41,870 bases of DNA from a virus (IMGVR_UViG_3300003323_000274:1-41870); one strand, 5' to 3'; positions 6,318-36,231 are shown, counted from the first letter of the stretch. Made by a program: numbers and translations. Notes: generated from the sequence alone by a model not told the origin.

Positions 6318-6521
6318 ATGAAAAAAGTCACAATAAAATTAGAAATTACAAGTTGTAAACAATGCCCTTTCTTTAAAGAAGGGGATAGGGAAACTACAGA
6401 TGGTTTTGATTCAGGAAATGATTGGTTGTGTACAAAAAAGAATAAACTAATAGCCGGATTTGTGGAGTGGCATGAGGTCTCGAAAATAGAAGTTCCTAAA
6501 TGGTGTCCTATAGCGCAATAA
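6318..6521 (+). CDS. small Cys-containing protein (67 aa)
   Basis: Carries CKQCPFF...C...WCP cysteines. It is the last gene of the plus arm and overlaps the convergent ORF 6508..7092 by 14 nt. Confidence 0.5.
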   Translation: MKKVTIKLEITSCKQCPFFKEGDRETTDGFDSGNDWLCTKKNKLIAGFVEWHEVSKIEVPKWCPIAQ

Positions 6522-7092
6522 ATAAACCTACTATAAAAGCTACACCAATTCCTATTGTCTTTAATCTTCCGATTCGTTTGCGTCTCTTCAAAATCTTATC
6601 CTGATCGGTAATTATTTCATCCTGCTTAACTATTATAGAATCCTGTTTTGATATAGTTGAATCCTGGCTTTCGACTATTGCATTCAAAACTGTTAAGTCT
6701 TCCTGATGATCGGCTTTGAGCACATTTATTTTGTTTTCCTGAGTTAGGTTTAAAGAGTCAAGATCGCCAACGAAAGCCTTCACAACCGCCATTGAATCTA
6801 TTTCCTGCATGACTTGTGGTCTGTTTTCCTGTATTCGCTCTTTAAGCTTTAAAATTGGCTTGTCCGCTAAGGTTTCATTAACGATGTGTTTTTTCTTATT
6901 CGTCAGTATCAAGGATTTTAAGCTATCTGTAATGAGCTTAAAGTGCGTCTCTGAGGCATGTAGTATTTTAACATCGGATTCGAGTCCTTTTATCTTTAGT
7001 TCAGCACTGTTTGAAGTCTCTGTGTGGAGAACGTAAAAGGCTCCGATTAATAAAATCAGGATTATAATGATTATTTCACGATAATATTTCAT
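6508..7092 (-). CDS. double-membrane-anchor coiled-coil protein (194 aa)
   Basis: N-terminal TM (IIIIILILLIGAFYVL), a long coiled coil, and a C-terminal TM (IGIGVAFIVGLFIAL). Confidence 0.6.
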   Translation of the reverse strand: MKYYREIIIIILILLIGAFYVLHTETSNSAELKIKGLESDVKILHASETHFKLITDSLKSLILTNKKKHIVNETLADKPILKLKERIQENRPQVMQEIDSMAVVKAFVGDLDSLNLTQENKINVLKADHQEDLTVLNAIVESQDSTISKQDSIIVKQDEIITDQDKILKRRKRIGRLKTIGIGVAFIVGLFIAL

Positions 7093-7549: not shown

Positions 7550-7553
7550 ATTG

Positions 7554-7626
7554 CACGCCCTGATAGATTCGAACTATCGACCTATGGTTTTGGAGACCAT
7601 CGCTCTACCAACTGAGCTAAAGGCAT
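7554..7626 (-). tRNA. trnW: tRNA-Trp (anticodon CCA)
   Basis: Hand-folded cloverleaf. Acceptor atgcctt/agggcgt has A1-U72 and discriminator G73. D arm is gctc/gagc, anticodon stem atggt/accat with loop cuCCAaa, and T arm gatag-ttcgaat-ctatc. CCA is not encoded. Confidence 0.9.
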
Positions 7627-7629: not shown

Positions 7630-8142
7630 TTACTTATAAACAAATCTATTAACTCTGTTTTTCCATCCATCTATAAAATCTTCCTGCGTTGGATCTTTTT
7701 TAACCAATCCTTCATAATACATAATCCTGGCTTCCTTATAAGAATTAAACAATACTTTTGGATTAGCTGAGTTTATGGCGGCTAATGTTTGAGGGCCTAC
7801 CTTGAAGTCACAATTAACGCCAAGATGCTTCTGAAGTAATTGTATTGCGCGAGCTCCTGAGTTCACAAAGGCATCAAAAACAATATTTGCGAGTTGTTGA
7901 TCTTTCCATTCATTTCCTTTCATCTTCTGCCAGAACTCCTGAAAATAAATTTCCTTGGCATCTTTATAAGAAATGTTTTTGAGCGCCTCAGCTGTTGGTT
8001 CTAAGCCTAATGATTTGGCATATATCTTAAAAAGTTTAAAAGTTATCCCGAATTGAGTTAGGCCACCTTTATCATTCTTATGATTGCTTATGCCTCCTTC
8101 ATTTTTGAGGACTATTTCTATTGCTATACCAAAGTTTGCCAT
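7630..8142 (-). CDS. GH108-family endolysin (lysozyme with PG-binding C-terminal region)
   Basis: 170 aa. The N-terminal EIVLKNEGGISNHKNDKGGLTQFGIT matches the GH108 signature EGG...D.GG.T..GI. Confidence 0.85.
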   Translation of the reverse strand: MANFGIAIEIVLKNEGGISNHKNDKGGLTQFGITFKLFKIYAKSLGLEPTAEALKNISYKDAKEIYFQEFWQKMKGNEWKDQQLANIVFDAFVNSGARAIQLLQKHLGVNCDFKVGPQTLAAINSANPKVLFNSYKEARIMYYEGLVKKDPTQEDFIDGWKNRVNRFVYK

Positions 8143-8276
8143 TAAGAAATGTGAACGTGATTAAATAACCAAATAATACCTTGAACTATATGTACAATGC
8201 CGGTTATTAATCCAATAATAGCAAGTACCATCAATAATTTCCAAAGCCATTCCGGCCCTAAATTTATTGGCCCCAT
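8142..8276 (-). CDS. small membrane protein (44 aa; not in the ORF track), holin-like candidate
   Basis: Hand translation gives MGPINLGPEWLWKLLMVLAIIGLITGIVHIVQGIIWLFNHVHIS. Its TAA overlaps the endolysin ATG (TAATG). Confidence 0.45.
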   Translation of the reverse strand: MGPINLGPEWLWKLLMVLAIIGLITGIVHIVQGIIWLFNHVHIS

Positions 8277-8280
8277 ATTT

Positions 8281-8724
8281 TCATCTTTGATAGATTACAA
8301 TAACTGATAGAATGCAAATCACTAAAGCTAAAGCCTTCATTACAATGTGTAAGTTCGGGCCAACCCAAGCAGCGAAACGATCTAAATATCCTGAATCGAA
8401 TTCTTTATGATCATAGTAAAATAGCGATCTATGTGACCATGCATTTCTAATAAACTCGTAAATAATCCAAAATGATGTTACCTGGAATAAAAGATATGGC
8501 GCCCATACAACGGTAAGCTCCCATGCTGACAAAGTAGTATAGTCTGTTATTTTATCCTGCTTTACCACGAGCATGAAAATGCCGTGAATAATAGCCAGCA
8601 TGCCGCGAATGATGAAGTAAAGAAGATAGTTAGGCTTGCCACCTTTATATGTTGTTTTGTAGTCGTAGTAATTGAATCCGGGGATTACAATAAGAATCCA
8701 GATTAAAATCAGTGCTGTTATCAT
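8281..8724 (-). CDS. multi-pass membrane protein (147 aa)
   Basis: About four hydrophobic helices. It lies in the lysis cassette and overlaps its upstream neighbour. Confidence 0.6.
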   Translation of the reverse strand: MITALILIWILIVIPGFNYYDYKTTYKGGKPNYLLYFIIRGMLAIIHGIFMLVVKQDKITDYTTLSAWELTVVWAPYLLFQVTSFWIIYEFIRNAWSHRSLFYYDHKEFDSGYLDRFAAWVGPNLHIVMKALALVICILSVIVIYQR

Positions 8725-8933
8725 TTGCGCACGCTTTCCGCGATTTCTTTTAATGTATCGATCTCACTCTTAAGAAATAGATTCACCTGAGTAGCTAGCA
8801 ATGTCACCTGATTAGAGAGGTTATCAATAGACTTCTGCATCACTGCTATCTGTTTAGTATGCTGAACGTTTGATAGTCCCAGATATGCTGCAAAAGCCAC
8901 TACAATACCGGCTATAACTTGCCATGCTTCCAT
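8721..8933 (-). CDS. N-terminal TM plus coiled-coil protein (70 aa)
   Basis: TM segment VIAGIVVAFAAYLGL is followed by a heptad-like helix. The architecture is holin- or i-spanin-like. Confidence 0.55.
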   Translation of the reverse strand: MEAWQVIAGIVVAFAAYLGLSNVQHTKQIAVMQKSIDNLSNQVTLLATQVNLFLKSEIDTLKEIAESVRK

Positions 8934-9307
8934 AGAATAATTAATGAAGTATACAAAATTAACTTAATATCGGTGAATTCCACACCATACCAACCAAAAT
9001 GAAATATCGGATGTTCGTAGATAAGTATGAAGTCAATTAACGAACCAACTTCTAAGGTAAAGAATAAGGTGAAAATTAGTGCATATTTAGGCAATTCAAA
9101 CCTACAAAACAGCCAAATAGCCAACATTGCCAGGTGATTTGCAAACATGTAGATATATGATTGTAGATTAATCCCTATATTTTTACCTTGATAAATCAGA
9201 TCGTAAAAAGGAAAAGGATCAAAATATATCCCTGAGAAAATAGGGAAGCTACAGAGCCGATTAATAGCGACACTAAAAAGAATTAGCCATAATCCCCACT
9301 TTCTCAT
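8912..9307 (-). CDS. multi-pass membrane protein (131 aa)
   Basis: Several hydrophobic helices; part of the lysis-region operon. Confidence 0.6.
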   Translation of the reverse strand: MRKWGLWLILFSVAINRLCSFPIFSGIYFDPFPFYDLIYQGKNIGINLQSYIYMFANHLAMLAIWLFCRFELPKYALIFTLFFTLEVGSLIDFILIYEHPIFHFGWYGVEFTDIKLILYTSLIILWKHGKL

Positions 9308-9504
9308 TATTGATGAGGTGGCGGAGGTGGATTCTCTGGGGTTGATGACTCTAACGCAAAATCAATTGTTTCCGAGTCTTGGCCTAAAACATGGGCGTAA
9401 CAAATACCATGCGGATCAATGCTGATGCGTATCTCAGTATGCCTATCTTTTTCCCATTTTGTTTTTAGGAAATCAATTAATCTTTGTTTGTTCTCTTCGC
9501 TCAT
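9307..9504 (-). CDS. hypothetical protein with poly-Pro C-terminus (65 aa)
   Basis: ORF ending in NPPPPPHQ, coupled to its neighbours. Confidence 0.5.
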   Translation of the reverse strand: MSEENKQRLIDFLKTKWEKDRHTEIRISIDPHGICYAHVLGQDSETIDFALESSTPENPPPPPHQ

Positions 9505-9667
9505 AATCTACTATGATTTTTGTCAGTTTTTCAACCTTAAATTTAAGATTTTCTGTTTCATTTTCAAGTCTTTTTATTTCTCGTTTCTGTTTTTGCCGAA
9601 CTGTCATCTGCCATGCAATGTATAACAATCCAATTGTAAAAAGACCTTTCATTGTATCATAGTGCAT
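9473..9667 (-). CDS. N-terminal TM plus coiled-coil protein (64 aa)
   Basis: TM segment LFTIGLLYIAWQMTV is followed by a charged helix. It is the first gene after the intergenic gap 9668..9728. Confidence 0.5.
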   Translation of the reverse strand: MHYDTMKGLFTIGLLYIAWQMTVRQKQKREIKRLENETENLKFKVEKLTKIIVDYERREQTKIN

Positions 9668-9728: not shown

Positions 9729-10691
9729 CTAAAGCTTTTCTAAAGCTGCTGCAATTTCATCTTTAACGTATTGCTTACCATCCTCAAAAGTCTGTCCGGT
9801 TGGCTCTGGGCCGAATTGTGAAAGTATCCATTGATAGCACTGATCTTTCCCTGGTATAATACTCATGACTTCATCCCAACCACTATGCCCAGCATTGCGA
9901 ATATCCATAGTAAACACATTTTCCGTTCCTGCATGGGTCTTATTATAGGCATTGAAAAAGTTCATTGCCACCGAGTAGCTAACCTGTGTGTCCAAATTTC
10001 CGTGATAGCAATACCCGGGAATTGAAACCATATTAGGAATAGCGTTAATGCCCCCTGATGGTTTTCCGGATAGCGACACAACCCCTGCAATCAGTTTATA
10101 AGTGTCTTTTGTCATTACATCCAAACTAGCTATTGCACCTAACGAAATGCCACTGACTATAATCTTACTGGGCTTAAATGTCATTTGAACCCAAGGCAGA
10201 AATATTTTATTTGCGCCTGTGTATGAGTTCTGTGGTTGAATCATTACCATATTGAATGGTAAATCGTAGCCAGCCTTAACTAAGCGCGGGAAACCATATT
10301 TGTAAAGTGCTGCAAGATTTCCACCGGCACCGTCCGATAGTTCTCCTGTGCCTGGTAAAAATATTAGCCAATGAGTTGAGTTTAATGGCGATCTATAAAC
10401 TACATAATCAATCTTACCCCCGAAAAAATCACCTTGCGGATGTTCTTCAATTATTCCTTGTTGAATTACTTCTGAAATTACAATGCCTCTGTAGTTAAGG
10501 CTGTCATTAATTTTATATGTTACATTGTTAACCACTGATGTTATCCAATCACATGTTTCTCCGGGAGCATGTATTACGGCGCAGGAAATATTTGGATTAT
10601 GGTTTATAAATTTAGCTAACGATAATGTCCCTGTTTTCTGCCCAAAAGCCAGCGCAGGAAGTAATATAATGAATAATAATAACTTTTTCAT
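9729..10691 (-). CDS. secreted alpha/beta-hydrolase esterase
   Basis: Signal peptide MKKLLLFIILLPALAFG|Q. GxSxG nucleophile elbow in VSGISLGAIAS, with candidate Asp (GNLDTQ) and His (NAGHSGW). Confidence 0.7.
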   Translation of the reverse strand: MKKLLLFIILLPALAFGQKTGTLSLAKFINHNPNISCAVIHAPGETCDWITSVVNNVTYKINDSLNYRGIVISEVIQQGIIEEHPQGDFFGGKIDYVVYRSPLNSTHWLIFLPGTGELSDGAGGNLAALYKYGFPRLVKAGYDLPFNMVMIQPQNSYTGANKIFLPWVQMTFKPSKIIVSGISLGAIASLDVMTKDTYKLIAGVVSLSGKPSGGINAIPNMVSIPGYCYHGNLDTQVSYSVAMNFFNAYNKTHAGTENVFTMDIRNAGHSGWDEVMSIIPGKDQCYQWILSQFGPEPTGQTFEDGKQYVKDEIAAALEKL

Positions 10692-10693
10692 TT

Positions 10694-12694
10694 CTAATAC
10701 CTGTTTAATGTTGCTTCAAATGTATATAAAATATCCTCAAGATTTGATAATTCAGATTGAGAAAGTCCATCAGCAATACCAGCGTAAGAGGCTTTTTGAT
10801 CGGTTGGATAAATACCTCCAAGAATGCAAATGTTTGAACTAAAAGATGCAAATGATGTTGCGGTTTGATCTAACATCAATTGTTTGTATTTATATGATTT
10901 CCAACCAGTTGATGATTGTCGGCTAATATAGTATCGGCCTTTTGAAACTGGATTATTTTTGGTCGTTAATCCTCCTGATTGATTAAACTGTACATACATC
11001 GTTGATCCACCAGGGATGATTGTATAAGCACCTGTAGAATTTGAAGTCTGTGAACACATTATACTTTTTGTTCCGGTACCGGAACTTAATTGAGATGCGA
11101 ATAAGCAAAGATTATCACGATATGTTCCTGATGATGCCGGATTGAAATTCGTGCTCAGGAAATTATTCGCTGCGTTAGTCCCTGTAGCTCCATCACTTGA
11201 AAATGTGACCGTCCCTGTTTGAGTTAATCTATATGAAGCGTCTAAATCTTGAGGGTCTTTAAAATTGAATTTTGATTTATTTAAAGAAGTTCCTAATAAC
11301 CAAAATCCTTTTATTTTTGTCCATAGTGATTGTGCCTTACAGCTTACTATAAATTGGTTATAAGCTGACTTCTCATCGTCCGACAATGTTTCTCCTGTTC
11401 CTGTTATCGCGTTAAATAAAGCTGTCGCATCGCTATCGAAAGAAGATTGTATGTTATTAGTTACTATTTGATCTGTTGCATTCGGAACTTCTAAAGAATA
11501 GTTTCGAACTAAACTTGCGGCATCCCCTGTAGTTTGATCATAAGAATAAGTGACAACATCACCATTGGCTAACGTAGGTACTGTAAATCTTAATTTTGTT
11601 GTTCCACTGCCTGATACCGATGTTGGATTATTGGCACTTCCATTTTTCTTAAAAGTCCATCCCACATTTGTAGCTATGACAGGTACATTATAAGTTACGA
11701 TTATTGATGTTGGCGATGATACTACAATGCTTAACATTGTAGCATAAGTAAGCGGAATACCAGGATTTTCTATTCGATCTGCGAGTGTATATGAGAATTG
11801 TTTATGTTGGGCTGTATTCATGTGAACATTATCACCTGGCACAATGCTATTAGCTATTTCCCAATCCATTGAACTGAAGAAAGGAATTCTTCTATCAGCA
11901 CACAATGATTTGGCAGCATCCCTGAATGTGGCTAATCTTGTTGTATTGGTAGGGCTATTGAATGGGCCCATTACAACAATTCTATTAGATGGCCAACCCG
12001 CTGTAAAAATTGAATAATCGAGCCATGCACTTAATGCCGCCTTATATTGATCAGGAGTTGCATTTGATAAAATAGGCGTTGTTACACCATCATTAACACC
12101 AAAATCATTTATGAGGTAATTGAGTTCCGGTATCTTACTTACCATTTTATTGGCGCCAGTGCTATAAATCCATAAAGAAGTCGGGGGTGATGCTTCAGGA
12201 GTTATCGAATTACCTGGCAATCCTATAATTTCTCCAGCTGCTGGAACAGTCCAATTTTTAGCATAAGCAAACAACCATGCAAATCCAGAAGATAAAGGAG
12301 AAGCAGCCGTTCCATATACCATAGAATCTCCTACAAATTCAGTGCGTGTATCAATGGTGTTGTCTGATATTATTGTATTCAGTGTTAAATTAATCCATGA
12401 GCCTCCATTACTTCGAACTCTATAGAAACAATAGCCAGACATAGCCGCTGTTTCATCATGATAAGACAAATTTGATCCAGAATAAATTGTTATTGCATCT
12501 GAATAATCAGAAAAAAATGCTCTTTGCAATTCGTAATTTCCGGAGGTCTGATAAGTCCAAGAAACATTATTTATGAATCCATAATCATGTTGAGCGTATA
12601 GCGAAAATTGACCCGTAGTAAAAATGCCCTTGTTTTGAGCAAAGGCATTTAATGACAGTAATAAAAGTAGCGTAAGTATTTTTGTAATTCTCAT
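10694..12694 (-). CDS. secreted SGNH/GDSL-type esterase with large C-terminal domain (666 aa)
   Basis: Signal peptide MRITKILTLLLLLSLNAFA|Q. SGNH blocks are FVGDSMVYG, GVNDG and GDNVHMN. Confidence 0.7.
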   Translation of the reverse strand: MRITKILTLLLLLSLNAFAQNKGIFTTGQFSLYAQHDYGFINNVSWTYQTSGNYELQRAFFSDYSDAITIYSGSNLSYHDETAAMSGYCFYRVRSNGGSWINLTLNTIISDNTIDTRTEFVGDSMVYGTAASPLSSGFAWLFAYAKNWTVPAAGEIIGLPGNSITPEASPPTSLWIYSTGANKMVSKIPELNYLINDFGVNDGVTTPILSNATPDQYKAALSAWLDYSIFTAGWPSNRIVVMGPFNSPTNTTRLATFRDAAKSLCADRRIPFFSSMDWEIANSIVPGDNVHMNTAQHKQFSYTLADRIENPGIPLTYATMLSIVVSSPTSIIVTYNVPVIATNVGWTFKKNGSANNPTSVSGSGTTKLRFTVPTLANGDVVTYSYDQTTGDAASLVRNYSLEVPNATDQIVTNNIQSSFDSDATALFNAITGTGETLSDDEKSAYNQFIVSCKAQSLWTKIKGFWLLGTSLNKSKFNFKDPQDLDASYRLTQTGTVTFSSDGATGTNAANNFLSTNFNPASSGTYRDNLCLFASQLSSGTGTKSIMCSQTSNSTGAYTIIPGGSTMYVQFNQSGGLTTKNNPVSKGRYYISRQSSTGWKSYKYKQLMLDQTATSFASFSSNICILGGIYPTDQKASYAGIADGLSQSELSNLEDILYTFEATLNRY

Positions 12695-14937
12695 TGTATG
12701 ATATGATAGCTAAAAAGATAAGTTGTTGAAGCCGTTAAAGCAGTTGTATTCGACTCAATTACAAAAGTAGTAGTAGTTACACCATTTGTTTCACCAGCTG
12801 CTGGAACTAATACTTGATTAACACCAACCAATCCATTTGCATTTCTATTTGCAGGTAAAAGAATAACTTTTGGAGCCGCTCCGTATGCAGTGTTAAAAGT
12901 AATTGTGGCAATGATTGCATTTGTTCCGGTTGGCGTTGTTCCTGTAACAACAGATACTATACCAGCTAAATCTGTACTTCCTGCAACAATTGTAACAGTA
13001 GGACTTGTGCCTGATCCGGCACCGGCAGAAACAGTAGGTGCTGAAGTTCTTCCAATAAGATGATTTGATTTTAAATTACCTCCTATTTCAAGAGCCTCAG
13101 TTGGGCTTGTTACACCAGCTAATCCATTTTTAGAATTTGCATCCTCGTCAACAAAAAATCCATGATTCCCTATAACTGTTCCAATAGTAGGTTTATGTCT
13201 TATGCCTACTCTAAAATGATTTGTTCCACCAGTATCATTTAGATAATCAGGATCAATTAAAATTCCATTATAGGTATGAGTACCGCTTGCGTATTGTGTT
13301 GGTGTTTTAACTTCAAATGTACTTACATCACCCGTCTGTGTTGATGCGTATCTAGCTCTAAATCCAGCAGAGGCAGACCCTTGTAATAGTGCTTCTAGTG
13401 TTGATCCGCTATTATAATTACTTATAGTAGATAAAGACAAAGTTCCTATACTAGACATCCTGGCAACCTCTCCAATAGCGCCCCCATTAATAGAATAAGA
13501 AAAACTCAAATAATTAGTTGGTGTTGCTCCTGGTATTGATTGACTATATAGTAAAAAGTCAGAAACATTGGTGCTTCCTGATGTTGTATTCCAAACATTT
13601 CCGCTAAATCTTAATGGATTTGATATTTGTGTTTGGGTGCCAACCAATGCAACAGTTCCATTTCTAAGTGTTATACCAGAAGTTAATGTTTGTGTAACTG
13701 CAAGACCATCAGTTTCAAATGTGGCTCTGGATAATGGAGAGGCCGTTCCTATTCCAAGATATTTATTTGTAGCATCGAAAAATAAATTAGAATTATCCTG
13801 TGTTAGAATTGATCCATTAGAATACGGAATTGAACCGGATGTATAAGATGTAGTAATCTTCGTAGCCAAATCGATTGAACCGGCAAGCATTGTATTTGTA
13901 ACCTTACCAGCGCCTATTGCAAGTACAGGCGCAAGAGTCGTAGAACCTGTTGTGCTACCTGTCACATCTCCTGTGGGAGACCATGAAATAGTTTGATTAG
14001 CTGAAATTTTGTTATTGAAAGTACTCCAATCTGTTTGAGTCAAATAGCCATCATGCGTTGCATCTGCGGCTGGTAGTGCGGCTGCTGTAATTGCTGCATT
14101 CGCATAAGCAGTAGTTGCCACTTTTGTACTATTATCTCCAGGGCTTTGTGTTGTCGCTGTCGTTCCGTTTGGTAATGCCGGAGTTCCTGAAAGATTGGCT
14201 GCGGTACCTGTTGTATTCTGATTAAGTGTTGGGAAATCACCAGCGACCGCAATTGAAGGAATGCCAGTAGATGTCGTATTTTTTAAGATACCTGTTGCTA
14301 ATCCTGCTAAAGAAGTACCGTTTATTTTCGTTACGGTTGGGCTTGGAAGTGTTCCTGAAAGATCGCCGCCAGCCGTTGAACTAATTGTTGCGGCTGTTCC
14401 CAATCCTAAATTAGTTCGCGCGATTGATGCGTTGGTAAGATCAGATAAATTTGATGCATTGGCTAATTTAGCATCTAAAGCACTTTGTAAATCGGTTTGA
14501 CTCGATAATGTACCTGTAATACTTCCCCATGTTCCGCCGCCACCGGAACCCGAACCGCCTTCCATTACGAAGTTTGTTCCGTTATACCTGAATCTCTTAC
14601 TTTCGCCCGCTGAAATGTCGCCCGCTGAAAGATTAACTAAAGATCCGGAAGAATATTTTTTTAATGTGATTGCGCCCAATGGGTTTGAGCCATCGCTAAT
14701 ATTTAGTGTTGAAGAACCTGTATTTGCATTGGTGAATAGGATTGTATAACCTTTATTAGTGGTTAATGTTGCGCCGATAATTGTAGTTGTATAGGTATCC
14801 GTTCCGGATGCAATTGATGGCATTGTTAAAGCCGTATTTATGTTAGCAACAGAATTGCTGCCGCTTGGATTCATTTGCGTCTGTCCATATCCTGCGATTG
14901 AACAAACTGTTAGTATGAGTATTAATATTTTTTTCAT
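12691..14937 (-). CDS. tail fibre protein with N-terminal signal-peptide-like segment
   Basis: Phage-fibre motifs NLSDLTNASIARTNLGLG and SPGDNSTKVATTAYANAAI, a GGSGSGGGG hinge, and S/T/G/N-rich sequence. Start chosen at ATG 14937 (MKKILILILTVCSIAGYGQ), 1 nt after the upstream stop. The track start at 14967 is also possible. Confidence 0.75.
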   Translation of the reverse strand: MKKILILILTVCSIAGYGQTQMNPSGSNSVANINTALTMPSIASGTDTYTTTIIGATLTTNKGYTILFTNANTGSSTLNISDGSNPLGAITLKKYSSGSLVNLSAGDISAGESKRFRYNGTNFVMEGGSGSGGGGTWGSITGTLSSQTDLQSALDAKLANASNLSDLTNASIARTNLGLGTAATISSTAGGDLSGTLPSPTVTKINGTSLAGLATGILKNTTSTGIPSIAVAGDFPTLNQNTTGTAANLSGTPALPNGTTATTQSPGDNSTKVATTAYANAAITAAALPAADATHDGYLTQTDWSTFNNKISANQTISWSPTGDVTGSTTGSTTLAPVLAIGAGKVTNTMLAGSIDLATKITTSYTSGSIPYSNGSILTQDNSNLFFDATNKYLGIGTASPLSRATFETDGLAVTQTLTSGITLRNGTVALVGTQTQISNPLRFSGNVWNTTSGSTNVSDFLLYSQSIPGATPTNYLSFSYSINGGAIGEVARMSSIGTLSLSTISNYNSGSTLEALLQGSASAGFRARYASTQTGDVSTFEVKTPTQYASGTHTYNGILIDPDYLNDTGGTNHFRVGIRHKPTIGTVIGNHGFFVDEDANSKNGLAGVTSPTEALEIGGNLKSNHLIGRTSAPTVSAGAGSGTSPTVTIVAGSTDLAGIVSVVTGTTPTGTNAIIATITFNTAYGAAPKVILLPANRNANGLVGVNQVLVPAAGETNGVTTTTFVIESNTTALTASTTYLFSYHIIQ

Positions 14938-14938
14938 T

Positions 14939-15211
14939 TTAATTAGTATCAGTTTTTTTGCCGGCAATTTTATCTACTCGATTAAATATTTTTCCAAAGT
15001 ATTCATCAGTCATAAAGACCAAAACGAGGCCAATTATTAAAGGTATTAAGGGCAACCACCATTCATAAGGAATGTCCTGTTTTAAAACTAAGAATGCTGG
15101 TACAATATATTTTACCACATACATTGCAGCGCTGATTATTATAAAAACACCTCCAAGTATTGTGGTTACAGGATTATGTTTCGGGTTAATGTTTGTTCCT
15201 ATGTCTGCCAT
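14939..15211 (-). CDS. two-TM membrane protein (90 aa from internal ATG)
   Basis: Two hydrophobic helices (ILGGVFIIISAAMYVV and LPLIPLIIGLVLVF). Start chosen at ATG 15211, 4 nt after the upstream stop. The track start is 15268. Confidence 0.5.
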   Translation of the reverse strand: MADIGTNINPKHNPVTTILGGVFIIISAAMYVVKYIVPAFLVLKQDIPYEWWLPLIPLIIGLVLVFMTDEYFGKIFNRVDKIAGKKTDTN

Positions 15212-15215
15212 AATT

Positions 15216-15605
15216 TTAGAATATAGTATTTTCAAATATCCAATCGTTAGGATCTGTTGTTGATGCATTCGCTATTTTTGCAATGCCAATCACTTCATCG
15301 GGTAATGGATTACCAGCCTTATCAAGTAAAGTAGACGATCCTGATTTTGTACCATAATATTTTTGCCACTGAGCAGACCCACTAGGGAAAAGATTCGTAG
15401 ACATATCCCACAATGTATAACCAGATGAAACAACGCCAGCCAAAGCAGCAATATTCCCCGAAGTAGTCTTTACACTTTGTCCTGATTGAGTACATTCAAC
15501 TAGCTCAGAACCATCTAAAGCGCCAGCATCAGGCAATTCACTAATTTTTTTTGCCTGAACAAATACATTATTTATAATTCTTACAACTTCACTCTGAAGG
15601 CTCAT
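15216..15605 (-). CDS. virion/tail-fibre-associated protein (129 aa)
   Basis: ISELPDAGALDGSELVECTQSGQSVKTT resembles the N-terminal motif common in phage fibre proteins. Confidence 0.45.
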   Translation of the reverse strand: MSLQSEVVRIINNVFVQAKKISELPDAGALDGSELVECTQSGQSVKTTSGNIAALAGVVSSGYTLWDMSTNLFPSGSAQWQKYYGTKSGSSTLLDKAGNPLPDEVIGIAKIANASTTDPNDWIFENTIF

Positions 15606-15769
15606 GATTCTAATTGTCTAAGTTCTGTATTTTGAGTAATTCTTAATTCCATTTCTTCAGTTTTTCGCAAAACTTCATCAATCGTCCTATAATCATCAAT
15701 TACTTCTGAGTAAAGATAATCAATTTCAATATTTGAGTAAACTTGATCCATAGTCTGTGACGAAATCAT
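15602..15769 (-). CDS. small acidic protein (55 aa; not in the ORF track)
   Basis: Hand translation gives MISSQTMDQVYSNIEIDYLYSEVIDDYRTIDEVLRKTEEMELRITQNTELRQLES. It has ATGA overlaps at both ends and fills the gap. Confidence 0.45.
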   Translation of the reverse strand: MISSQTMDQVYSNIEIDYLYSEVIDDYRTIDEVLRKTEEMELRITQNTELRQLES

Positions 15770-16122
15770 AACACTTTCAAAGTTCCATAACGCAAAGCTT
15801 GCTCATATCCTGCGCGACTATAACCAATTTCATAAAAATAGTTGCCGTTGTCATCAAAAGTCATATCTGAAACGCTTGCATTAGCAATTAAATAGGTTCC
15901 TGATCGCTGCAATGATAAATCTAAAATCAATCTTCCATTACGTTCGTTATAAATTCTAAAATAAGACGAAACATAATCAGGAAAATCAAAATCAATCTCT
16001 TCATAAGGTATCTCGGCACAATCAACTATAGTAAAAAATCTGAATGCCTTATTAATAAGTGCTTGCCCGTTATAAATTGATAATGGGTATTCTTTTGCCT
16101 GATATAGCTTAGTATTGATCAT
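15766..16122 (-). CDS. hypothetical virion morphogenesis protein (118 aa)
   Basis: Lies between the connector-like gene and the fibre genes. No motif recognised. Confidence 0.5.
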   Translation of the reverse strand: MINTKLYQAKEYPLSIYNGQALINKAFRFFTIVDCAEIPYEEIDFDFPDYVSSYFRIYNERNGRLILDLSLQRSGTYLIANASVSDMTFDDNGNYFYEIGYSRAGYEQALRYGTLKVL

Positions 16123-16675
16123 AACAATTTCTGCATCGGCAGTTCGGATCGTGACCTGTTAAACTATTTCGTCTGTGTTTATTTTTAACCGCTGTTATTC
16201 TGAATGAATTCCCACTCAGTTTAGAGTCATTACAACGATTGTGTAATGGATAATCTGTAATGTGATTATCCATAAATTGTATGAAAAGTTCTTTATAATA
16301 TTGACTCTTTTGTTTTGCATCCTTAATGATAGTTGCCATCTGAATATCAGTGGCAATTACACTATTTTCTTCAGTATGAACCCTGAAGCCTCCACGCGTT
16401 GGTTTAAAGTTTGCTTTGATAATCCAAAATTCATTTGCCTGCCATGCAACATATTGCTTTATGTAAGGATTATAAAGTGAGTTATATACTGGAGACATGG
16501 TTTTATTAACGTATGCTGTTTTAAAATCCTGATAGAATCTATCGGACATAAGCATTCTTAAAGTTTCCTGCGCCTGATAAATCTTTCCTTCTAATTCTTC
16601 ATCAGGAATATTATTAGGAATATCGCATTCCTCTTTTAGATAAGCATACGTTATTAATTTGTCTTGTTTAGCCAT
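16109..16675 (-). CDS. putative head-tail connector/adaptor (gp6-like)
   Basis: Sits immediately downstream of the portal. The N-terminal ITYAYLKEECDIPNNIPDEELEGKIYQAQETL resembles the gp6-like connector pattern. Confidence 0.4.
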   Translation of the reverse strand: MAKQDKLITYAYLKEECDIPNNIPDEELEGKIYQAQETLRMLMSDRFYQDFKTAYVNKTMSPVYNSLYNPYIKQYVAWQANEFWIIKANFKPTRGGFRVHTEENSVIATDIQMATIIKDAKQKSQYYKELFIQFMDNHITDYPLHNRCNDSKLSGNSFRITAVKNKHRRNSLTGHDPNCRCRNCYDQY

Positions 16676-18279
16676 TGGTCATACTCTTTAAGCTTTGAAT
16701 CAAGAAAATCAAACATAGCCTTGCCTCCCCAGGCATTGTATAAAACTACTTCGCAGTTCTTTTCGAACGGTGAATTAGCAAACGTATCACGAACCTTTAG
16801 AAAGTTATAAATTCTTTTTAACTGTTTCAATCCCATGTTTTGGTTTTGAACAATCATATTTGAAACTTCAGCGCCAGCTTTACCTCCGCATTTAAGTTGC
16901 ATTTTATCCATATAATCTAAAGCCGTTTGTACGTTTTTAATAACGTTTGGCGGGAAAGATATTGGAATTGCATTTTTAATATTTGTTGGTGGCGTTGGTA
17001 ATATCTGCCCCGGGGTTGATATATCGGTATTTGGATCGGTTAAATCTATCTCGGTATTATCCTGAATCCATTTACGTTGTTCTTCACGTGATAAAGCTGC
17101 CCAAACAAGTGGATTAACCTGGTTTACTTCAGGGTATGGATTATAAGGAACGATGTCTATATCCTGAATATAAGGCTTTGCCATCAACTTTAAAACCTGT
17201 GAATACATATCCGTTAGATTACGCTGGCGTTTTACTACACGCTGTTGCATTAGCTTAACAGCTACCTTTATCTGGTTACCATCACCGCCCAGGCTTACGC
17301 CCTCCTGAATGTTGGCAAGTATCCCAGGTACTTTCCACGCTACTGTAATTTTCTTTGTGGCTTGGTTGTCCAGCGTTACAAATACATCATCATTTGAATT
17401 TGATGGTATCGGTATTACTTCCGGTTTTTCTTCAGATGAATTAACCCATTGAACCCACATGTTACCCACACGTTTAGCGCCCATGAAATTATTGCTAATC
17501 ACTTCGTCAAACTCTTGTCCTACTGTCATAGGCTCTTTTGAATCTGCATACTCCGGATTATTGCTTGGTGCGTTAGGGTCTCCCTTCATTAAAAGAATGA
17601 AGGCCTGCATTAATCCGTTATCAATATTATCTTCATGGTAATTTGACACACCCGCTTCAATCTTCATCCATTTAACCGCCGCATAAGCTTCATTGATTGG
17701 ATAAAAACGGCTCATGGTTGAAGTTGACCCATAAAAAAGAACCTGGCCTTTATATTTATTGCCTTGTTCTTCCATTTGTTTCTTTACAACATCTGGATTA
17801 TATACGTCATAGGTCTTTGTCTTCTTTCTATTCGATTGATACTGAGGTGTACCGAAAAAAGGATTGTAAAATATCTTTGAAATATATCCGTTGTCGTCCG
17901 GCAAATCGAGACGGCAATTTTCGAATGGTAAAACCTCAATTTCTGTAACTTTACCAAGTGAATTATACTTCACAAGCCAATAAAATCCGAAATTCTGTTC
18001 GTATTCCTTAACTGTTTGGTGATGAACATGCCAAAATGTTTCTTTTTTCTTGTTTATGACAAGTTTTTCAAGTGCTTCATCGGAAAATCCGAATCCTTCA
18101 ACGAAATCACAACGTGTAGATAGACAAGATGCAGCGGAAGGGCTTTCAGAAATTATACGTGCCCACTCAATAGGAAAAGAATCACCGTCATGTCCAAAAT
18201 ACGGTATGTACCTGTCAATTGTTTGCTGGTATTTAGGAAATGCCTGCCTCCAAAGATTGTATATTTTCGTCTTGAACAT
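16654..18279 (-). CDS. portal protein (541 aa) with extra C-terminal domain
   Basis: Size, composition and the following connector gene all fit a portal. The C-terminal GG..G...WGG domain is of a type often fused to phage head proteins. Assigned without a search. Confidence 0.6.
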   Translation of the reverse strand: MFKTKIYNLWRQAFPKYQQTIDRYIPYFGHDGDSFPIEWARIISESPSAASCLSTRCDFVEGFGFSDEALEKLVINKKKETFWHVHHQTVKEYEQNFGFYWLVKYNSLGKVTEIEVLPFENCRLDLPDDNGYISKIFYNPFFGTPQYQSNRKKTKTYDVYNPDVVKKQMEEQGNKYKGQVLFYGSTSTMSRFYPINEAYAAVKWMKIEAGVSNYHEDNIDNGLMQAFILLMKGDPNAPSNNPEYADSKEPMTVGQEFDEVISNNFMGAKRVGNMWVQWVNSSEEKPEVIPIPSNSNDDVFVTLDNQATKKITVAWKVPGILANIQEGVSLGGDGNQIKVAVKLMQQRVVKRQRNLTDMYSQVLKLMAKPYIQDIDIVPYNPYPEVNQVNPLVWAALSREEQRKWIQDNTEIDLTDPNTDISTPGQILPTPPTNIKNAIPISFPPNVIKNVQTALDYMDKMQLKCGGKAGAEVSNMIVQNQNMGLKQLKRIYNFLKVRDTFANSPFEKNCEVVLYNAWGGKAMFDFLDSKLKEYDQWLNKTN

Positions 18280-19018
18280 CAGGTATATTGAAATTTACTG
18301 ACGCACGGATCAGTGTCTTACCGTAAAACTTACAAAAATATCCTTCTTTGGCAAGGGCTAAATCTTGCCTTATTGTTGAACGTTCTATATTTGCCCGGGC
18401 GCTTGAGTTCCGAATCTTCTTTTCGAAATCTTTTCGAATCCAGCTATAATGGTGCATTATTATTTTTGACCATTCAACTCCTGTATTTATATTAAGCTGT
18501 CGTGTTGGATCTATCCTTATTTGACGTGTCATTTTATCCCAGGCAAAGGGGAAATTACGATTCATTTCAAATCGCATGTTCGGTTCAAGCTTATGGATAA
18601 ATGTAACCAAAGTTGTATCTAGGCCTATTGTAAGCTTTGTACTTTTGAAATAGGTTTGGCAAGAGCATATAAGGCCTTTCAAATTTGGGTTTAAAAATCT
18701 TTCCTTCTCTTTTTTAAATGGTTCGTGTTCATAGAACTCGTCAGCATCCATCATTAAAAAATGTGTGTATCCTTGTTTTTTTGCCAGCTCAAGACCATAA
18801 TTTCTTTTATCTGTTTCAGATTGCATAGGGTTGGCAGACTTATGAGGCTCCCAGTTATAATAATCACCCCCTTCAGTTATGCCAGGTGAATGTTCTCCAT
18901 AATTACTATACCTTGAAAATATTACAATAACCCCATCAACTAATGGTCTAATGTTTCTTATTGAATGCTCAAGAATATCCCAATCATCCCAAACATTGTA
19001 AATAGCAGCTAATTTCAT
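18233..19018 (-). CDS. GT-A fold glycosyltransferase
   Basis: 261 aa, with a DxD motif in HFLMMDADEFY and an N-terminal Rossmann-like strand AAIYNVWDD. Its 3' end overlaps the portal start by 47 nt. Confidence 0.65.
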   Translation of the reverse strand: MKLAAIYNVWDDWDILEHSIRNIRPLVDGVIVIFSRYSNYGEHSPGITEGGDYYNWEPHKSANPMQSETDKRNYGLELAKKQGYTHFLMMDADEFYEHEPFKKEKERFLNPNLKGLICSCQTYFKSTKLTIGLDTTLVTFIHKLEPNMRFEMNRNFPFAWDKMTRQIRIDPTRQLNINTGVEWSKIIMHHYSWIRKDFEKKIRNSSARANIERSTIRQDLALAKEGYFCKFYGKTLIRASVNFNIPDVQDENIQSLEAGIS

Positions 19019-19087
19019 TGTTTTTAAGATTATTTTTAATAATTTAGCAGTGCGGTAGTGAAGCCAATAATACTATCGAAGACATTG

Positions 19088-19123
19088 AGGCCTGACTTGT
19101 TGGTAATCGGTCAGGCCTTTTTT
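19088..19123 (+). terminator. Plus-oriented intrinsic terminator inside a minus-strand operon
   Basis: A 9-bp stem aggcctgac/gtcaggcct is followed by tttttt on the plus strand. On the minus strand the hairpin has no U-tract. Confidence 0.55.
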
Positions 19124-19128
19124 ATAAT

Positions 19129-19344
19129 TCACCATAATCTGGTATGTTTATGCCAAAGCCCTTTTGGGCATTCCTCTTCTTTTATTTCTACTTTGGCATG
19201 CAACTCACAAAAACATATACCGCAAACAATGCCTTTTCTGAATGGACATTCAAAACAAATTTTTAATCTTTTTTTTGCCATCCATGAACGTTTAGCAAAC
19301 AAAAATAGAAACCACCCTTTGCAAATATTAAATAGCTTTTTCAT
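19129..19344 (-). CDS. small Cys-rich protein (71 aa)
   Basis: Contains CFECPF..CGICFC..H...CPKGLW, a putative zinc-binding pattern. ATGA-coupled within the glyco island. Confidence 0.5.
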   Translation of the reverse strand: MKKLFNICKGWFLFLFAKRSWMAKKRLKICFECPFRKGIVCGICFCELHAKVEIKEEECPKGLWHKHTRLW

Positions 19345-19955
19345 AACATTCCTTGAAGATGAAAAACTGAATTAGGTTCTGGTGTTGAATACCCAGGCCC
19401 AATATAAGACATGTGTTGGCCGCCGCGTTGAAATTTCATTCCCATTTGTTGAGCGATGATTGATCCACACGTCATATCATGCCGATGATTAGACCAATCG
19501 CCTTTAAAATGACCGTCTAAAGCTGATTGTTTCCATTTTGAAAACCACTCCATTGCAGTAGCATTTGTTTTATCAAGGCCCAGGAATCCGGCAGAGAACA
19601 TAATGAAATCAGTTTCTTTTGTGATTCCGAAATATTGCAATGTTTCAGGCTTGCACCAATCGCGCACATAATGCCCCGCTTCCGACATGAAATAACCATC
19701 TTGTTTTATGATGTTTTCAATGATTGATAGATCACCTACGCAATACATTGATGCATCACACCATATGACAATATTATCGCGTTCAAAGGCTTTTTCGATA
19801 GCATGTATCTTAAATTCATAAGGGCTTTCTTGATGTGATGGACTTCCTATTGCTTGATACTTATCGAATAATAAAACCTGATAGCCTCGGATGCTTTTAG
19901 CTAGGCGTTGCTGGCCTGATTGATAAGCGTTTGTTGCGAAGTTTACTATTATCAT
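19341..19955 (-). CDS. putative nucleotide-sugar transferase-like protein
   Basis: 204 aa. The N-terminal strand MIIVNFATN and IVIWCDAS (DxD-like) suggest a GT-A-like fold. Tentative. Confidence 0.45.
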   Translation of the reverse strand: MIIVNFATNAYQSGQQRLAKSIRGYQVLLFDKYQAIGSPSHQESPYEFKIHAIEKAFERDNIVIWCDASMYCVGDLSIIENIIKQDGYFMSEAGHYVRDWCKPETLQYFGITKETDFIMFSAGFLGLDKTNATAMEWFSKWKQSALDGHFKGDWSNHRHDMTCGSIIAQQMGMKFQRGGQHMSYIGPGYSTPEPNSVFHLQGML

Positions 19956-20554
19956 CGTGCAAAAATTAAATTCTCAGCTGAAGTATAAATCAAATTAAAC
20001 CCGAACATGTATTTCTGATAAGCATCCTTCAATTCTGGTTTTGAGTTCCATTCAATGCAGATCATTCTAACTCCCGAAAGATCCATGTCTGGTAAAATAT
20101 TAAGCTCTTCGCCTTCACAATCCATTGATATGAAATCAAATTGCTTAATGGTGAGACGATTTAAAAACGTCTTCCATTTGAAACACTTAACAGTCACTGG
20201 CTTATAGTCAACAGTTGATTTGAATCTATCCATTTCATGTGAGTGAAAAGTAGAAACAAGGCCAATGTCATTAGCTGAGCATAGCGGCCCTGACTCATGT
20301 AATATCGCATTACCATTATGATTTGATAAAGCAAAATCATATAAGTAAAATCCCTTCAGACCTTCATAGTTTTTCTGAAGCATGCTAAAAGCTTTTGGTG
20401 ATGGCTCAACGAATACTCCTTTCCATCCTAGTTCAGCAAGCGCTCTAACATTAGAAAATGTTTTACCATCATTACTACCAATATCTATGAATGATCCTTT
20501 CTGGCCTTTGAAGTAGTCCAATATTACTTCTTCTTCTCTGTTCTGTGAGTACAT
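19952..20554 (-). CDS. FkbM-family SAM-dependent methyltransferase
   Basis: Motif I is FIDIGSNDGKTFSN, and the length of 200 aa is typical of the Methyltransf_21/FkbM type. Confidence 0.75.
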   Translation of the reverse strand: MYSQNREEEVILDYFKGQKGSFIDIGSNDGKTFSNVRALAELGWKGVFVEPSPKAFSMLQKNYEGLKGFYLYDFALSNHNGNAILHESGPLCSANDIGLVSTFHSHEMDRFKSTVDYKPVTVKCFKWKTFLNRLTIKQFDFISMDCEGEELNILPDMDLSGVRMICIEWNSKPELKDAYQKYMFGFNLIYTSAENLIFAR

Positions 20555-20559
20555 ATTTT

Positions 20560-21132
20560 TTATCTTCTTCGTGGAAATACCATCTTGTTTTTGTTCTTAT
20601 AATCGTAGTGATACATATCCTTTTCAATATGCACTTCAGTTTTAAGTAACCCTAAATCACGTATCTTTGTAGCCCAAATGTAATCCTCCTGAATCCATAT
20701 TGGTTCGAATCTAACGTGCTTTACCAAGTCTCTTTTGAATGCGCATAGATGGTTTGGGTATCTGATATACTGGCCTCTTCGCTCTTCGTATCGCTCACCT
20801 AATTTGATTGTAAAATTTGCTCTATTACCGCCATCTGTAGTCATGAATCCTTTGAAGGTGATAACATCAGGGCATTTCTGTATTGCGTTTAATAGTTCTT
20901 TGACATAATAATTAGGCACAATATCATCGGTATCAATCTGGCAAAAATATTGTCCTTGTGCACGATCAATAAGTGCATTACGTTTTGATCCTGTTGGAAC
21001 ATTACGCGGGCTGCAGTCCTCAATTATCTCAACCCCTTCAACAATCTGCGGCGCTAAAAGTCCGCGTAATCTATGAAGATATGCTTGACTTTCCTGGTCA
21101 GGAAGTGTAGGTATGAGTATCGAAAGAATCAT
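20560..21132 (-). CDS. family-2 type glycosyltransferase
   Basis: N-terminal LSILIPTL and the DxD motif QIDTDD. Confidence 0.75.
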   Translation of the reverse strand: MILSILIPTLPDQESQAYLHRLRGLLAPQIVEGVEIIEDCSPRNVPTGSKRNALIDRAQGQYFCQIDTDDIVPNYYVKELLNAIQKCPDVITFKGFMTTDGGNRANFTIKLGERYEERRGQYIRYPNHLCAFKRDLVKHVRFEPIWIQEDYIWATKIRDLGLLKTEVHIEKDMYHYDYKNKNKMVFPRRR

Positions 21133-21815
21133 AGTTTTCCTTTAATCCAATTCAAATATTCAGGACTTTGAATTTTACCAGGAGGGTCAATTAACCCAAA
21201 ATTATTTTTATATCGTTCAATGAAAAGTTTTTCGCCCTGCTCCCATGTTTTATCTGCGCGTTCATTGATGGCATCCTTTTTAGTTCTTCCGGTGCTATAA
21301 TGATCGTGTGAGAATTTTATTGGTAGTTCAATCTTTCTTCCGGTTAGATCAGCTACGCACGTCATTTCTGTATCACAGAACATGTGTCTGTATTCTGGAT
21401 GATATACATATCCGAATCGATTGTAATACTCACGATCCATGATTGGTAACGTGATTATCCATTTCTGAATACCATCGTAAGTTTTAGCTATCCAATCACT
21501 TTTGCCTGTTGTTAATTTTATTAACTGATCACCCCAATTTTCCGGACAATCAAAATCATCTGACATCACTACAATTATTCTGCATGTCGAGATTGCTGCG
21601 GCTGAATTGATGGCATCAATAGCGGATCTGTTTTGACCTGTTAAAATGATATGATCTTTGAACAGACGATCATAATCTTTCAATTTCGGATCATCTATAT
21701 CAACAGAAATAATATATTCAACATCAACCCCAGCTGAGTTAATCCATTTTGTTGCTACTTCGCGCGCGCGTTCAGCGCGGCCCCTTGATGGATGTATCAA
21801 TGATATTATAGACAT
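21129..21815 (-). CDS. GT-A-like glycosyltransferase
   Basis: ISLIHPSRGR strand and VVMSDDFDCPENWG. ATGA-coupled. Confidence 0.55.
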   Translation of the reverse strand: MSIISLIHPSRGRAERAREVATKWINSAGVDVEYIISVDIDDPKLKDYDRLFKDHIILTGQNRSAIDAINSAAAISTCRIIVVMSDDFDCPENWGDQLIKLTTGKSDWIAKTYDGIQKWIITLPIMDREYYNRFGYVYHPEYRHMFCDTEMTCVADLTGRKIELPIKFSHDHYSTGRTKKDAINERADKTWEQGEKLFIERYKNNFGLIDPPGKIQSPEYLNWIKGKL

Positions 21816-22626: not shown

Positions 22627-22808
22627 AAAGATTGTCGTTTTTCATCATTAACCTTTGAAGCAATTGCCTTGATTAACTTTTCTAATGTTTCATGATGATC
22701 GCCAATAAACGGATTATCATCTGATTGTTTTAAGCCTTTTAAATACCATGCAATATCACAAAGGTTCATTCGATCAATTGCATTTATGTTTTTAAAATAA
22801 TCCTCCAT
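22623..22808 (-). CDS. hypothetical protein (61 aa from internal ATG)
   Basis: The track ORF starts at TTG 22895 but would then run through terminator 22843..22871. ATG 22808 (MEDYFKN...) is the more plausible start. Confidence 0.45.
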   Translation of the reverse strand: MEDYFKNINAIDRMNLCDIAWYLKGLKQSDDNPFIGDHHETLEKLIKAIASKVNDEKRQSL

Positions 22809-35970: not shown

Positions 35971-36231
35971 TTAAGCGTTATTGAGTTTAATTGTTCTTGT
36001 TTGTACTGCTGTTCCAACTAATTGCCCGTTAGCGTCATAATATTCACAACTTCGCGTTTGTTGTGCATATACAGAACCGGTCATAAAGTCAGTGTAAATG
36101 TTGTTTGTTTGCCATGTATCGCAAGATGGTGCGTGAAAAAATGCTTTTTCATTTACGGTGTTAGCCTCCGTTTGGCCTGAGTTAATCACAACTATTGCAA
36201 TAACTGAGAGGATTAAAATTAACTTTTTCAT
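35971..36231 (-). CDS. small secreted protein (86 aa)
   Basis: Signal peptide MKKLILILSVIAIVVINSG|Q, with two Cys in the mature part. Confidence 0.55.
   Translation of the reverse strand: MKKLILILSVIAIVVINSGQTEANTVNEKAFFHAPSCDTWQTNNIYTDFMTGSVYAQQTRSCEYYDANGQLVGTAVQTRTIKLNNA

Follow-up and report, generated by a model that had tools for sequence, protein, structure and literature searches.

The stretch of DNA analysed here, IMGVR_UViG_3300003323_000274:1-41870 (the window; 41,870 bp), is a whole metagenomic contig and derives from a tailed phage. It carries a module of five genes, consecutive on the minus strand from 15605 down to 9729, in which a tail-fibre homolog and two predicted esterases very probably begin with working signal peptides for export by the host. 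In order of reading, the module encodes a 129-aa protein that we term the stub (15216..15605), a 90-aa membrane protein (14939..15211), the 748-aa fibre homolog (12691..14937), a 666-aa SGNH/GDSL esterase (10694..12694) and a 320-aa alpha/beta-hydrolase (ABH) esterase (9729..10691). Only 4 nt separate the stub and membrane-protein genes; the latter ends in TAA, and after a single base the fibre gene begins with the ATG at 14937. The fibre stop overlaps the SGNH start (ATGA), and the SGNH/ABH junction is given as an ATGA overlap as well, the listed coordinates being SGNH to 10694 and ABH from 10691. The five genes are one tightly packed late unit.

A sequence-only reading of this DNA had claimed Sec/signal peptidase I signals of the Bacteroidota type, with glutamine at +1, for the fibre, the two enzymes and an 86-aa open reading frame (ORF) elsewhere in the window. 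All four N-termini are present as described: MKKILILILTVCSIAGYG in the fibre (from ATG 14937), MRITKILTLLLLLSLNAFA in the SGNH protein, MKKLLLFIILLPALAFG in the ABH protein and ...VINSG in the 86-aa ORF, each followed by Gln. Our signal-peptide calls rest on our own heuristic (a positively charged n-region, then a hydrophobic core free of charges, and small residues at -3/-1), applied to all ATG ORFs of the window, and on comparative evidence. The heuristic is passed by all four, and its high-scoring flags in the window comprise only these four secretory-type N-termini and two membrane proteins. Three of the four lie in consecutive genes, an arrangement to which we assign, by our own estimate for 4 among ~62 genes, a chance of ~0.006. 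On the minus strand the predicted signals occupy residues 1-18 of the fibre (14884..14937; MKKILILILTVCSIAGYG, with Gln19 at +1), residues 1-19 of the SGNH protein (12638-12694) and residues 1-17 of the ABH protein (10641-10691). The fourth, in the 86-aa minus-strand ORF (35971..36231; ...VINSG, then QTEAN), stands outside the module, upstream of the terminase region; its mature part has two Cys, and the ORF has no family match.

The signals are kept in homologs of all three module proteins. Across 21 fibre homologs, with identity down to 47%, M1, K2 and Q19 are invariant, which together with the junction to the membrane-protein stop identifies ATG 14937 as the true fibre start. A signal-like n- and h-region is found in 67 of the 120 best fibre homologs, and in 65 of these 67 the c-region contains a small residue directly before Gln ([AGSCT]Q), a pattern seen in 18% of equal-sized segments elsewhere in the same proteins. 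The h-regions are ~12-14 residues long, where signals of this class have ~7-15, and in an AlphaFold2 (AF2) model fibre residues 3-15 form a detached helix of low confidence. A signal ending in Gln is likewise kept by 6/9 SGNH homologs (A1) and by 8/13 ABH homologs. Gln at +1 is known as the Q-rule and is found in 'more than 60%' of the signal peptidase I substrates of P. gingivalis (PMC5837995); five function-unknown proteins of P. gingivalis phages also obey it (PMC10367356). Together with the co-variation, the upstream membrane proteins and the motif depletion described below, these observations make it very probable that the N-termini of the fibre, SGNH and ABH proteins are working Sec/signal peptidase I signals. 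Two fibre homologs, P0046 and P0115, have signal-like N-termini that end in Ala before Val and Ala before Ala, not in a small residue before Gln, and signal-bearing fibres may thus also occur in phages of hosts outside Bacteroidota.

As to where the exported proteins would go, we considered a lipobox in the fibre signal and dropped it: the residue before its Cys (position -1) is V, L or I, and this Cys is absent from many homologs. Searches of Pfam and NCBIfam found neither a C-terminal domain for the type IX secretion system (T9SS; Por_Secre_tail, TIGR04183-type) nor a lipoprotein signal in any of the three proteins. Because there is no lipobox and no T9SS C-terminal domain, the default destination would be the periplasm. 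The mature parts of the esterases contain 6 and 4 cysteines, and that of the fibre none.

The signal varies jointly across the genes of the module. The fibre, the esterase that follows it and the ABH protein all carry a signal with Gln in the window and in four related loci (L001, L003, L012 and L013), whereas fibre, SGNH and ABH are all signal-less in L010, which is a 120-kb phage encoding a Baseplate_J protein, and in L011, a contig with a crAss_MUZ_C domain. We discarded wrong start codons as the cause of the signal-less homologs, since stop codons lie upstream. An unrelated 466-aa GDSL esterase occupies the SGNH position in L001, and different alpha/beta-hydrolases of 260-300 aa are in place in L003, L012 and L013; in each case the signal is still present. 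We then scanned IMG/VR with the fibre N-terminal domain, obtaining 64 dereplicated loci, and scored the next one or two ORFs. Downstream neighbours with a signal and Gln were found after 12/16 signal-bearing fibres, as against 1/46 signal-less ones (Fisher p = 1e-8), and L104 is a further concordant locus. These data strongly suggest that the signal belongs to the module as a whole rather than to its individual genes, and that the module acts as a unit.

The composition of the proteins points the same way. Bacteroidota O-glycosylate exported proteins at D(S/T)(A/I/L/V/M/T) (PMC8550257), and we counted the motif D[ST][AILMTV] against a composition-based expectation, with D[ST][other] as control tripeptide. 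In the signal-and-Gln proteins of signal-bearing loci the motif occurs at 0.39 of expectation (34 observed, 88.1 expected), compared with 1.16 in the non-membrane signal-less proteins of the same loci (128 observed, 110.3 expected). For the fibre homologs the ratio comes to 0.40 in signal-bearing and 0.58 in signal-less proteins, and for the control tripeptide to 0.73 and 0.64, respectively (Fisher p = 0.003); the mature part of the window fibre has 0 motifs where 3.3 are expected. Seven signal-bearing SGNH proteins hold 2 motifs against 18.4 expected, and six of the seven orthologs (P0122, P0125-P0130) have GNS for GDS at the catalytic serine, whereas the signal-less SGNH proteins P0123 and P0124 have 3-4 motifs each and keep GDS. 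The sequence GDS[ILMV] is itself an O-glycosylation motif, and its target would be the catalytic serine. Since avoidance is sensible only for proteins that meet the periplasm, the depletion argues for periplasmic exposure. Host O-glycosylation as the purpose of export was dropped, as the motif is depleted rather than enriched.

Directly upstream of the fibre gene lies the two-segment membrane protein that the sequence-only reading had also placed there (14939..15211, minus strand). Its small size, two hydrophobic segments and charged C-terminal tail (...GKIFNRVDKIAGKKTDTN) are features of holins; it has no family match and thus no holin-family homology, and the endolysin is 6.8 kb downstream with membrane proteins of its own. 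Among the relatives, a small membrane protein is encoded directly upstream of 10/14 signal-bearing fibres versus 0/44 signal-less ones (p = 2e-8), in most cases with an ATGA overlap at the fibre start. At least five unrelated families are represented, so that position is conserved and not sequence. Relatives of one such family, phrog_9990, adjoin endolysins and are annotated as holins in phages of Acinetobacter, Aeromonas, Curvibacter and others. Matches to such putative holins were obtained only for the positional counterparts in L017, L021 and L022. A role as specific partner of the fibre N-terminal domain was considered and dropped, since the fibre N-termini of the window and L001 are 82% identical and their membrane proteins unrelated.

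The fibre itself has the motifs NLSDLTNASIARTNLGLG and SPGDNSTKVATTAYANAAI, which the sequence-only reading had named as canonical fibre motifs. The window protein has no direct Pfam or PHROG match; its residues 181-260 are 63% identical to an annotated tail fibre protein by tblastn, and it has a weak PDB match to short tail fiber gp92. We found 855 homologs, which are modular with variable C-termini and many of which carry Collar, Peptidase_S74, K1-lyase_C or Pectate_lyase_3 Pfam domains of tail fibres and tailspikes. Behind the signal lies an N-terminal beta domain of ~105 aa that we name for its 'GTDTYT' motif (residues 20-126; 14560..14880, minus strand), followed by a Gly-rich linker. The domain is all-beta (AF2 predicted local distance difference test, pLDDT, ~90 over residues 41-126), and Foldseek gave no significant PDB fold match for it.

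In signal-less fibres the GTDTYT domain is internal and directly follows an N-terminal anchor, at an offset of 126 after the anchor MADxKISALxSAGALAGTEPxPIVQGG in one example and of 58-85 after an SQ..F..LYG..FPDNTTG anchor in others. In signal-bearing fibres the signal stands in the anchor's place, and a small protein of its own, encoded two genes upstream, carries the anchor motif. The same holds in the window, where the N-terminal particle-attachment domain is not on the fibre polypeptide and the anchor motif is in the stub (15216-15605), a protein with no signal peptide that holds the motif AKKISELPDAGALDGSELVECTQSGQSVKTT at residues ~18-57 and then a small C-terminal domain. By BLASTP, stub residues 19-57 match residues 4-42 of long, signal-less fibres that hold the GTDTYT domain. 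Stand-alone anchor stubs upstream of signal-bearing fibres fall into three anchor families, one in the window, L001 and L021, one in L017 and one in L012. In a search of 1.84 billion representatives, full-length stub relatives are all 82-145 aa long and the stub C-terminal domain is always terminal, whereas the anchor heads fibres of 100-940 aa. We dropped the idea that the stub is an exact fission product of a fused fibre, as only the ~40-aa anchor is common to both. From these alignments the fibre nonetheless looks split, with the anchor on the stub and the distal part on the 748-aa protein.

Both enzymes of the module retain the residues expected of active esterases. The SGNH protein is predicted to consist of the signal (1-19), an FN3-like domain (31-107), the SGNH domain (117-305; 11780-12346, minus strand), an Ig-like domain (320-412) and a lectin-like jelly roll (461-642). 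Residues 120-298 match Pfam Lipase_GDSL_2 over profile positions 1-177 of 178, with E = 4.8e-5 and 24.4 bits, below the cut-off of 32.9; most homologs have PF13472 in their precomputed annotation, and we take the protein as a divergent SGNH/GDSL member. S124, G158, N201, D202, D288 and H291 are invariant among 10 sequences. The AF2 model has a mean pLDDT of 68.7 and shows alternating strands and helices over 117-305 at moderate confidence; its Foldseek matches include the CE2 carbohydrate esterase 2wao, the lectin-like domains of BoNT Hc and CBM40, and tail chains of phage N4. A search of PDB sequences with the SGNH profile gave no match, and no particle-binding domain was recognised in the protein. 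In the ABH protein a variable 60-aa insert follows the signal and precedes the catalytic domain, which scores 28.9 bits against Pfam Abhydrolase_2, above the cut-off of 23; S183 (in GISLG), D234 and H269 are invariant among 14 sequences, and the family profile matches the phospholipase/carboxylesterase PDB 4q82 (E = 1.4e-5). The catalytic residues thus align in both families, where a failure to do so would have counted against the sequence-only reading, and we infer that both proteins are active esterases acting on carbohydrate. A set of 5.8 billion proteins yields only 12-13 relatives for these families, and the contexts that we looked up are all phage-like.

Two further observations concern the starts of the enzymes. 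The signal-less SGNH orthologs P0123 (L011, 8001-9977) and P0124 (L010, 8001-9977) start with a short run of hydrophobic residues and then a Gly-rich linker (MINIIANIIGGGSGSGGGS and MMSTATILNILLINNTGGGS), which align opposite the signal peptide of the other orthologs and could be a decayed signal or a docking peptide. In L104, an HNH/NUMOD4 homing-endonuclease ORF (14459-15831) starts with an esterase-type signal, MKKLILFLLFPALSFG followed by Gln, and the ORF after it encodes a DLH/alpha-beta-hydrolase without a signal; apparently the endonuclease was inserted into the hydrolase gene just after its signal.

Directly downstream of the module is a lysis cassette (7630..9667, minus strand) of small coiled-coil and membrane proteins and then a GH108 endolysin (7630-8142, minus strand; Pfam Glyco_hydro_108 and PG_binding_3) that has no signal peptide; such a cassette also follows the module in L001 and L021. 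Three small proteins in or near it (6508-7092, 8721-8933 and 9473-9667, minus strand) have one N-terminal membrane segment and a coiled-coil-like region each, with homologs after the module in L001, L015, L021 and L104, and could be spanin-like components. A tRNA-Trp gene (anticodon CCA; 7553-7626, minus strand) lies immediately downstream of the endolysin gene.

An exact 25-bp direct repeat at both contig ends (1-25 and 41846-41870) indicates a complete circular genome assembly. The other late genes include a large terminase (34227-35399), a tape-measure-like protein (25958-27994), a ClpP-type prohead protease (24513-25694) and a portal-like protein recognised by a PHROG match (16654-18279). 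Their order is unusual (16654-35399, minus strand): the terminase is followed by 614-aa and 742-aa proteins and the tape-measure-like protein, then by the protease and capsid genes, and the portal recognised by PHROG follows only ~16 kb downstream of the terminase. The 614-aa and 742-aa tail proteins have no family match. Within the structural block, between the capsid genes and the portal-like gene, are two glycosyltransferase-like genes (21129-21815 and 20560-21132) and an adjoining methyltransferase-like gene (19952-20554, minus strand), all recognised by PHROG matches; virion proteins or host glycans might be the targets of their modification.

Relatives of this phage in existing collections are few. 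The region had no Megablast match in 50,697 phage records, and tblastn of the fibre, SGNH and ABH proteins gave just two short partial matches, in Flavobacterium phage FL-1 and an uncultured phage, both of which lack signal-bearing fibres. The fibre N-terminal domain alone retrieved no cultured relative by tblastn, and an IMG/VR scan with the SGNH alignment gave no match. In the genome scan, the signal-bearing fibre type was found only on one contig of a Cyclobacteriaceae metagenome-assembled genome. The host of the phage is probably a member of the Bacteroidota.

We favour a reading in which the fibre and the two enzymes mature in the periplasm and are then loaded onto stub-bearing virions at lysis, and we put its probability at about 0.45. 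According to this reading, the fibre, SGNH and ABH proteins would be carried by the host Sec translocon and processed by signal peptidase I, their signals being tuned to Bacteroidota. The distal fibre and the two glycan esterases would be exported to the infected cell's periplasm, where they would mature: the signal would be removed, the host glutaminyl cyclase would convert Gln at +1 into pyroglutamate, giving an expected fibre N-terminus of pyroGlu-TQMNPSGSNSVANINTALTMPSIASG..., and any disulfides in the Cys-containing esterases would form. The virion, meanwhile, would be built in the cytoplasm, bearing only the short anchor stub. At lysis the inner membrane would be opened, possibly by the upstream holin-like protein, and the matured fibre would meet the particle and be loaded; the esterases would perhaps be loaded onto the virion too. 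Loading at lysis and the role given to the membrane protein are speculative. The full form of the proposal, a two-compartment assembly in which a side fibre is split and its exported part joins the virion only after a dedicated holin-like protein has opened the inner membrane, we put forward tentatively.

Periplasmic maturation of a virion fibre was absent from the sequence-only reading; the split anchor, the positionally conserved holin-like gene and the joint switching of the signals opened the way to it. We favour loading because the fibre keeps its full receptor-binding architecture with variable C-termini, because anchors are kept beside it in three families, because the proteins have no route to the cell surface, because no other long fibre gene was recognised in the complete circular genome, and because pyroglutamate capping stabilises extracytoplasmic proteins in Bacteroidota (PMC10653852).

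The explanations that had been proposed earlier deserve weighing against this reading. One is that the fibre and esterases are exported but never join the virion, and act instead on the envelope of the infected cell: in the periplasm the esterases would de-O-acetylate nascent surface polysaccharide and the fibre-like protein would bind it, destroying or masking the receptor and thereby sparing superinfecting or progeny phages a futile encounter with a dying cell. The evidence for genuine export applies here equally, the catalytic residues are kept in both enzymes and the SGNH protein has a lectin-like domain. Exported phage proteins encoded beside tail-fibre genes are established, in T5 Llp, T1/phi80 Cor and lambda Lom, and Q-rule phage proteins have been reported for P. 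gingivalis phages (PMC10367356). The lack of a lipobox or T9SS C-terminal domain for crossing the outer membrane weakens the idea, however, since the proteins would be retained in the periplasm, away from surface receptors. It would also leave the virion with only 129-aa stubs, and it does not explain why three anchor families occur as separate upstream genes or why the fibre has a full modular architecture with variable C-termini; the same enzymes, moreover, still follow the fibre gene in the signal-less phages, which points to a role outside the cell. The export half of this explanation stands, and receptor destruction or masking as its purpose, although weakened, is the main rival, at a lower probability than the favoured reading. 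Alternatively, the uncleaved hydrophobic N-termini might serve as membrane tethers or as docking helices to the assembling tail on the cytoplasmic side. All three proteins, which would need a shared route to the particle, have the feature, and the hydrophobic stretch and Gly-rich linker of a signal-less SGNH protein (MINIIANIIGGGSGSGGGS) could be a docking peptide. Yet a docking helix needs no positive n-region, no small residues at -3/-1 and no near-invariant Gln at +1, so that the small-x-small-Gln pattern in 65/67 homologs would go unexplained, as would the depletion of O-glycosylation motifs; Lys-Lys at the N-terminus would direct the bulk of the protein to be translocated, not kept in the cytoplasm, and h-regions of ~12-14 residues are typical of cleaved signals, not of anchors. 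We regard this use of the N-termini as improbable.

A further possibility is that the esterases are lysis helpers, exported in advance to de-O-acetylate peptidoglycan or to loosen an envelope layer for the endolysin, in the manner of Ape-type SGNH esterases or mycobacteriophage LysB. The module does lie between a holin-like gene and a lysis cassette with a GH108 muramidase, the signals would place the enzymes in the peptidoglycan compartment, and SGNH and alpha/beta-hydrolase chemistry suits an esterase role. In L010 and L011, however, the enzymes are signal-less and encoded among tail genes rather than lysis genes, and in L012 and L013 they are paired with CHAP endolysins, which O-acetylation should not block. 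The FN3-like, Ig-like and lectin-like parts of the SGNH protein recall phage tail proteins and secreted polysaccharide esterases, and a lysis function leaves no role for the fibre; at best a slim chance attaches to it. The last explanation, that the cassette was recently captured from a host and has no phage-specific role, had the attraction that Q-rule signal peptides are a host feature (PMC5837995). We reject it as highly improbable: the enzyme families are very rare and the contexts examined are phage-like contigs, the arrangement is conserved across many divergent phages, the G+C content of the module region matches that of the rest of the genome, and the fibre domains are common to ordinary phage fibres.

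Several points weigh against periplasmic maturation and loading as well. No precedent for a Sec-exported tailed-phage fibre was found in the literature, which gives an exported fibre a low prior, and loading at lysis must compete with dilution. The C-terminal domain of the stub is a terminal cap, with only the ~40-aa anchor in common with fused fibres, so the stub could be a short fibre complete in itself and not a docking site, and the unannotated 742-aa and 614-aa tail proteins might be the true receptor-binding carriers. In L020 (8001-13720), a signal-bearing fibre is followed by three signal-less proteins, one of them alpha/beta-hydrolase-like (LHGSGEKS). The depletion of O-glycosylation motifs is not uniform either: fibre-type proteins are depleted even without a signal (0.58), the ABH family is not depleted (10 observed, 5.8 expected), and the window SGNH protein keeps GDSM (residues 122-124). 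Finally, the co-variation and motif statistics are uncorrected for shared ancestry.

Tailed-phage particles are taken to be built wholly in the cytoplasm, and a host-tuned secretion signal on a receptor-binding fibre challenges that view in a phage group that infects an ecologically dominant phylum. Loading of the fibre after export would be a new assembly route, one that uses the host's stabilising pyroglutamate chemistry while avoiding its O-glycosylation; if loading does not take place, a full fibre and esterases are exported to remodel the envelope of a dying cell, which would be a new form of receptor management. In either case, pipelines for which a signal peptide speaks against a structural role would misannotate these genes, the Gln +1 signature is usable in host prediction, and anyone expressing these fibres or esterases will have to remove or respect the signal.

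Phage-encoded late proteins exported by Sec are known; what appears to be new here is a conserved, very probably working Sec signal on a tailed-phage fibre, of which we found no report in the literature. The closest likeness is to the Q-rule substrates of Bacteroidota, with which the module proteins share an n-h-c Sec signal, small residues at -3/-1, Gln at +1 and, as the expected consequence, pyroglutamate capping and protection from aminopeptidases (PMC5837995, PMC10653852, PMC10367356). They differ from them in being a tail-fibre homolog and its companion enzymes, which co-vary with a holin-like gene and an anchor stub, and in the frequency of Gln, 65/67 here (with cleavage predicted) versus 'more than 60%' in one host proteome. 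Virion-borne SGNH deacetylases (reviewed in PMC5380687; Acinetobacter phage, PMC8471582) resemble the SGNH protein in their location in the tail-fibre region, in accessory domains of carbohydrate-binding type and in a presumed action on O-acetylated surface polysaccharide. The known deacetylases, however, are domains of, or bound to, tailspikes assembled in the cytoplasm and have an N-terminal particle-binding domain and no signal peptide, whereas the SGNH protein here is a separate protein with a cleavable-looking signal.

Signal-peptide and signal-arrest-release (SAR) endolysins that work with a holin, such as fOg44 Lys44 and P1 Lyz, offer a parallel for the gene order: the gene of a small membrane protein immediately precedes late genes for Sec-exported products, which leave the cytoplasm before lysis and whose action awaits a membrane event. 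Here the predicted cargo consists of a fibre with esterases instead of a muralytic enzyme. The long tail fibres of T4 are separately folded trimers that can join otherwise complete particles last, so that attachment after opening of the membrane is physically conceivable; unlike in our proposal, both partners are cytoplasmic in T4, and we know of no case in which partners from different compartments are joined. The exclusion proteins T5 Llp, T1/phi80 Cor and lambda Lom are similarly exported and encoded beside tail-fibre genes, and they act on the receptor from within the infected cell. They are small lipoproteins or outer-membrane proteins with sorting signals, whereas the module described here is predicted to export large, soluble proteins, one of them a full-length fibre.

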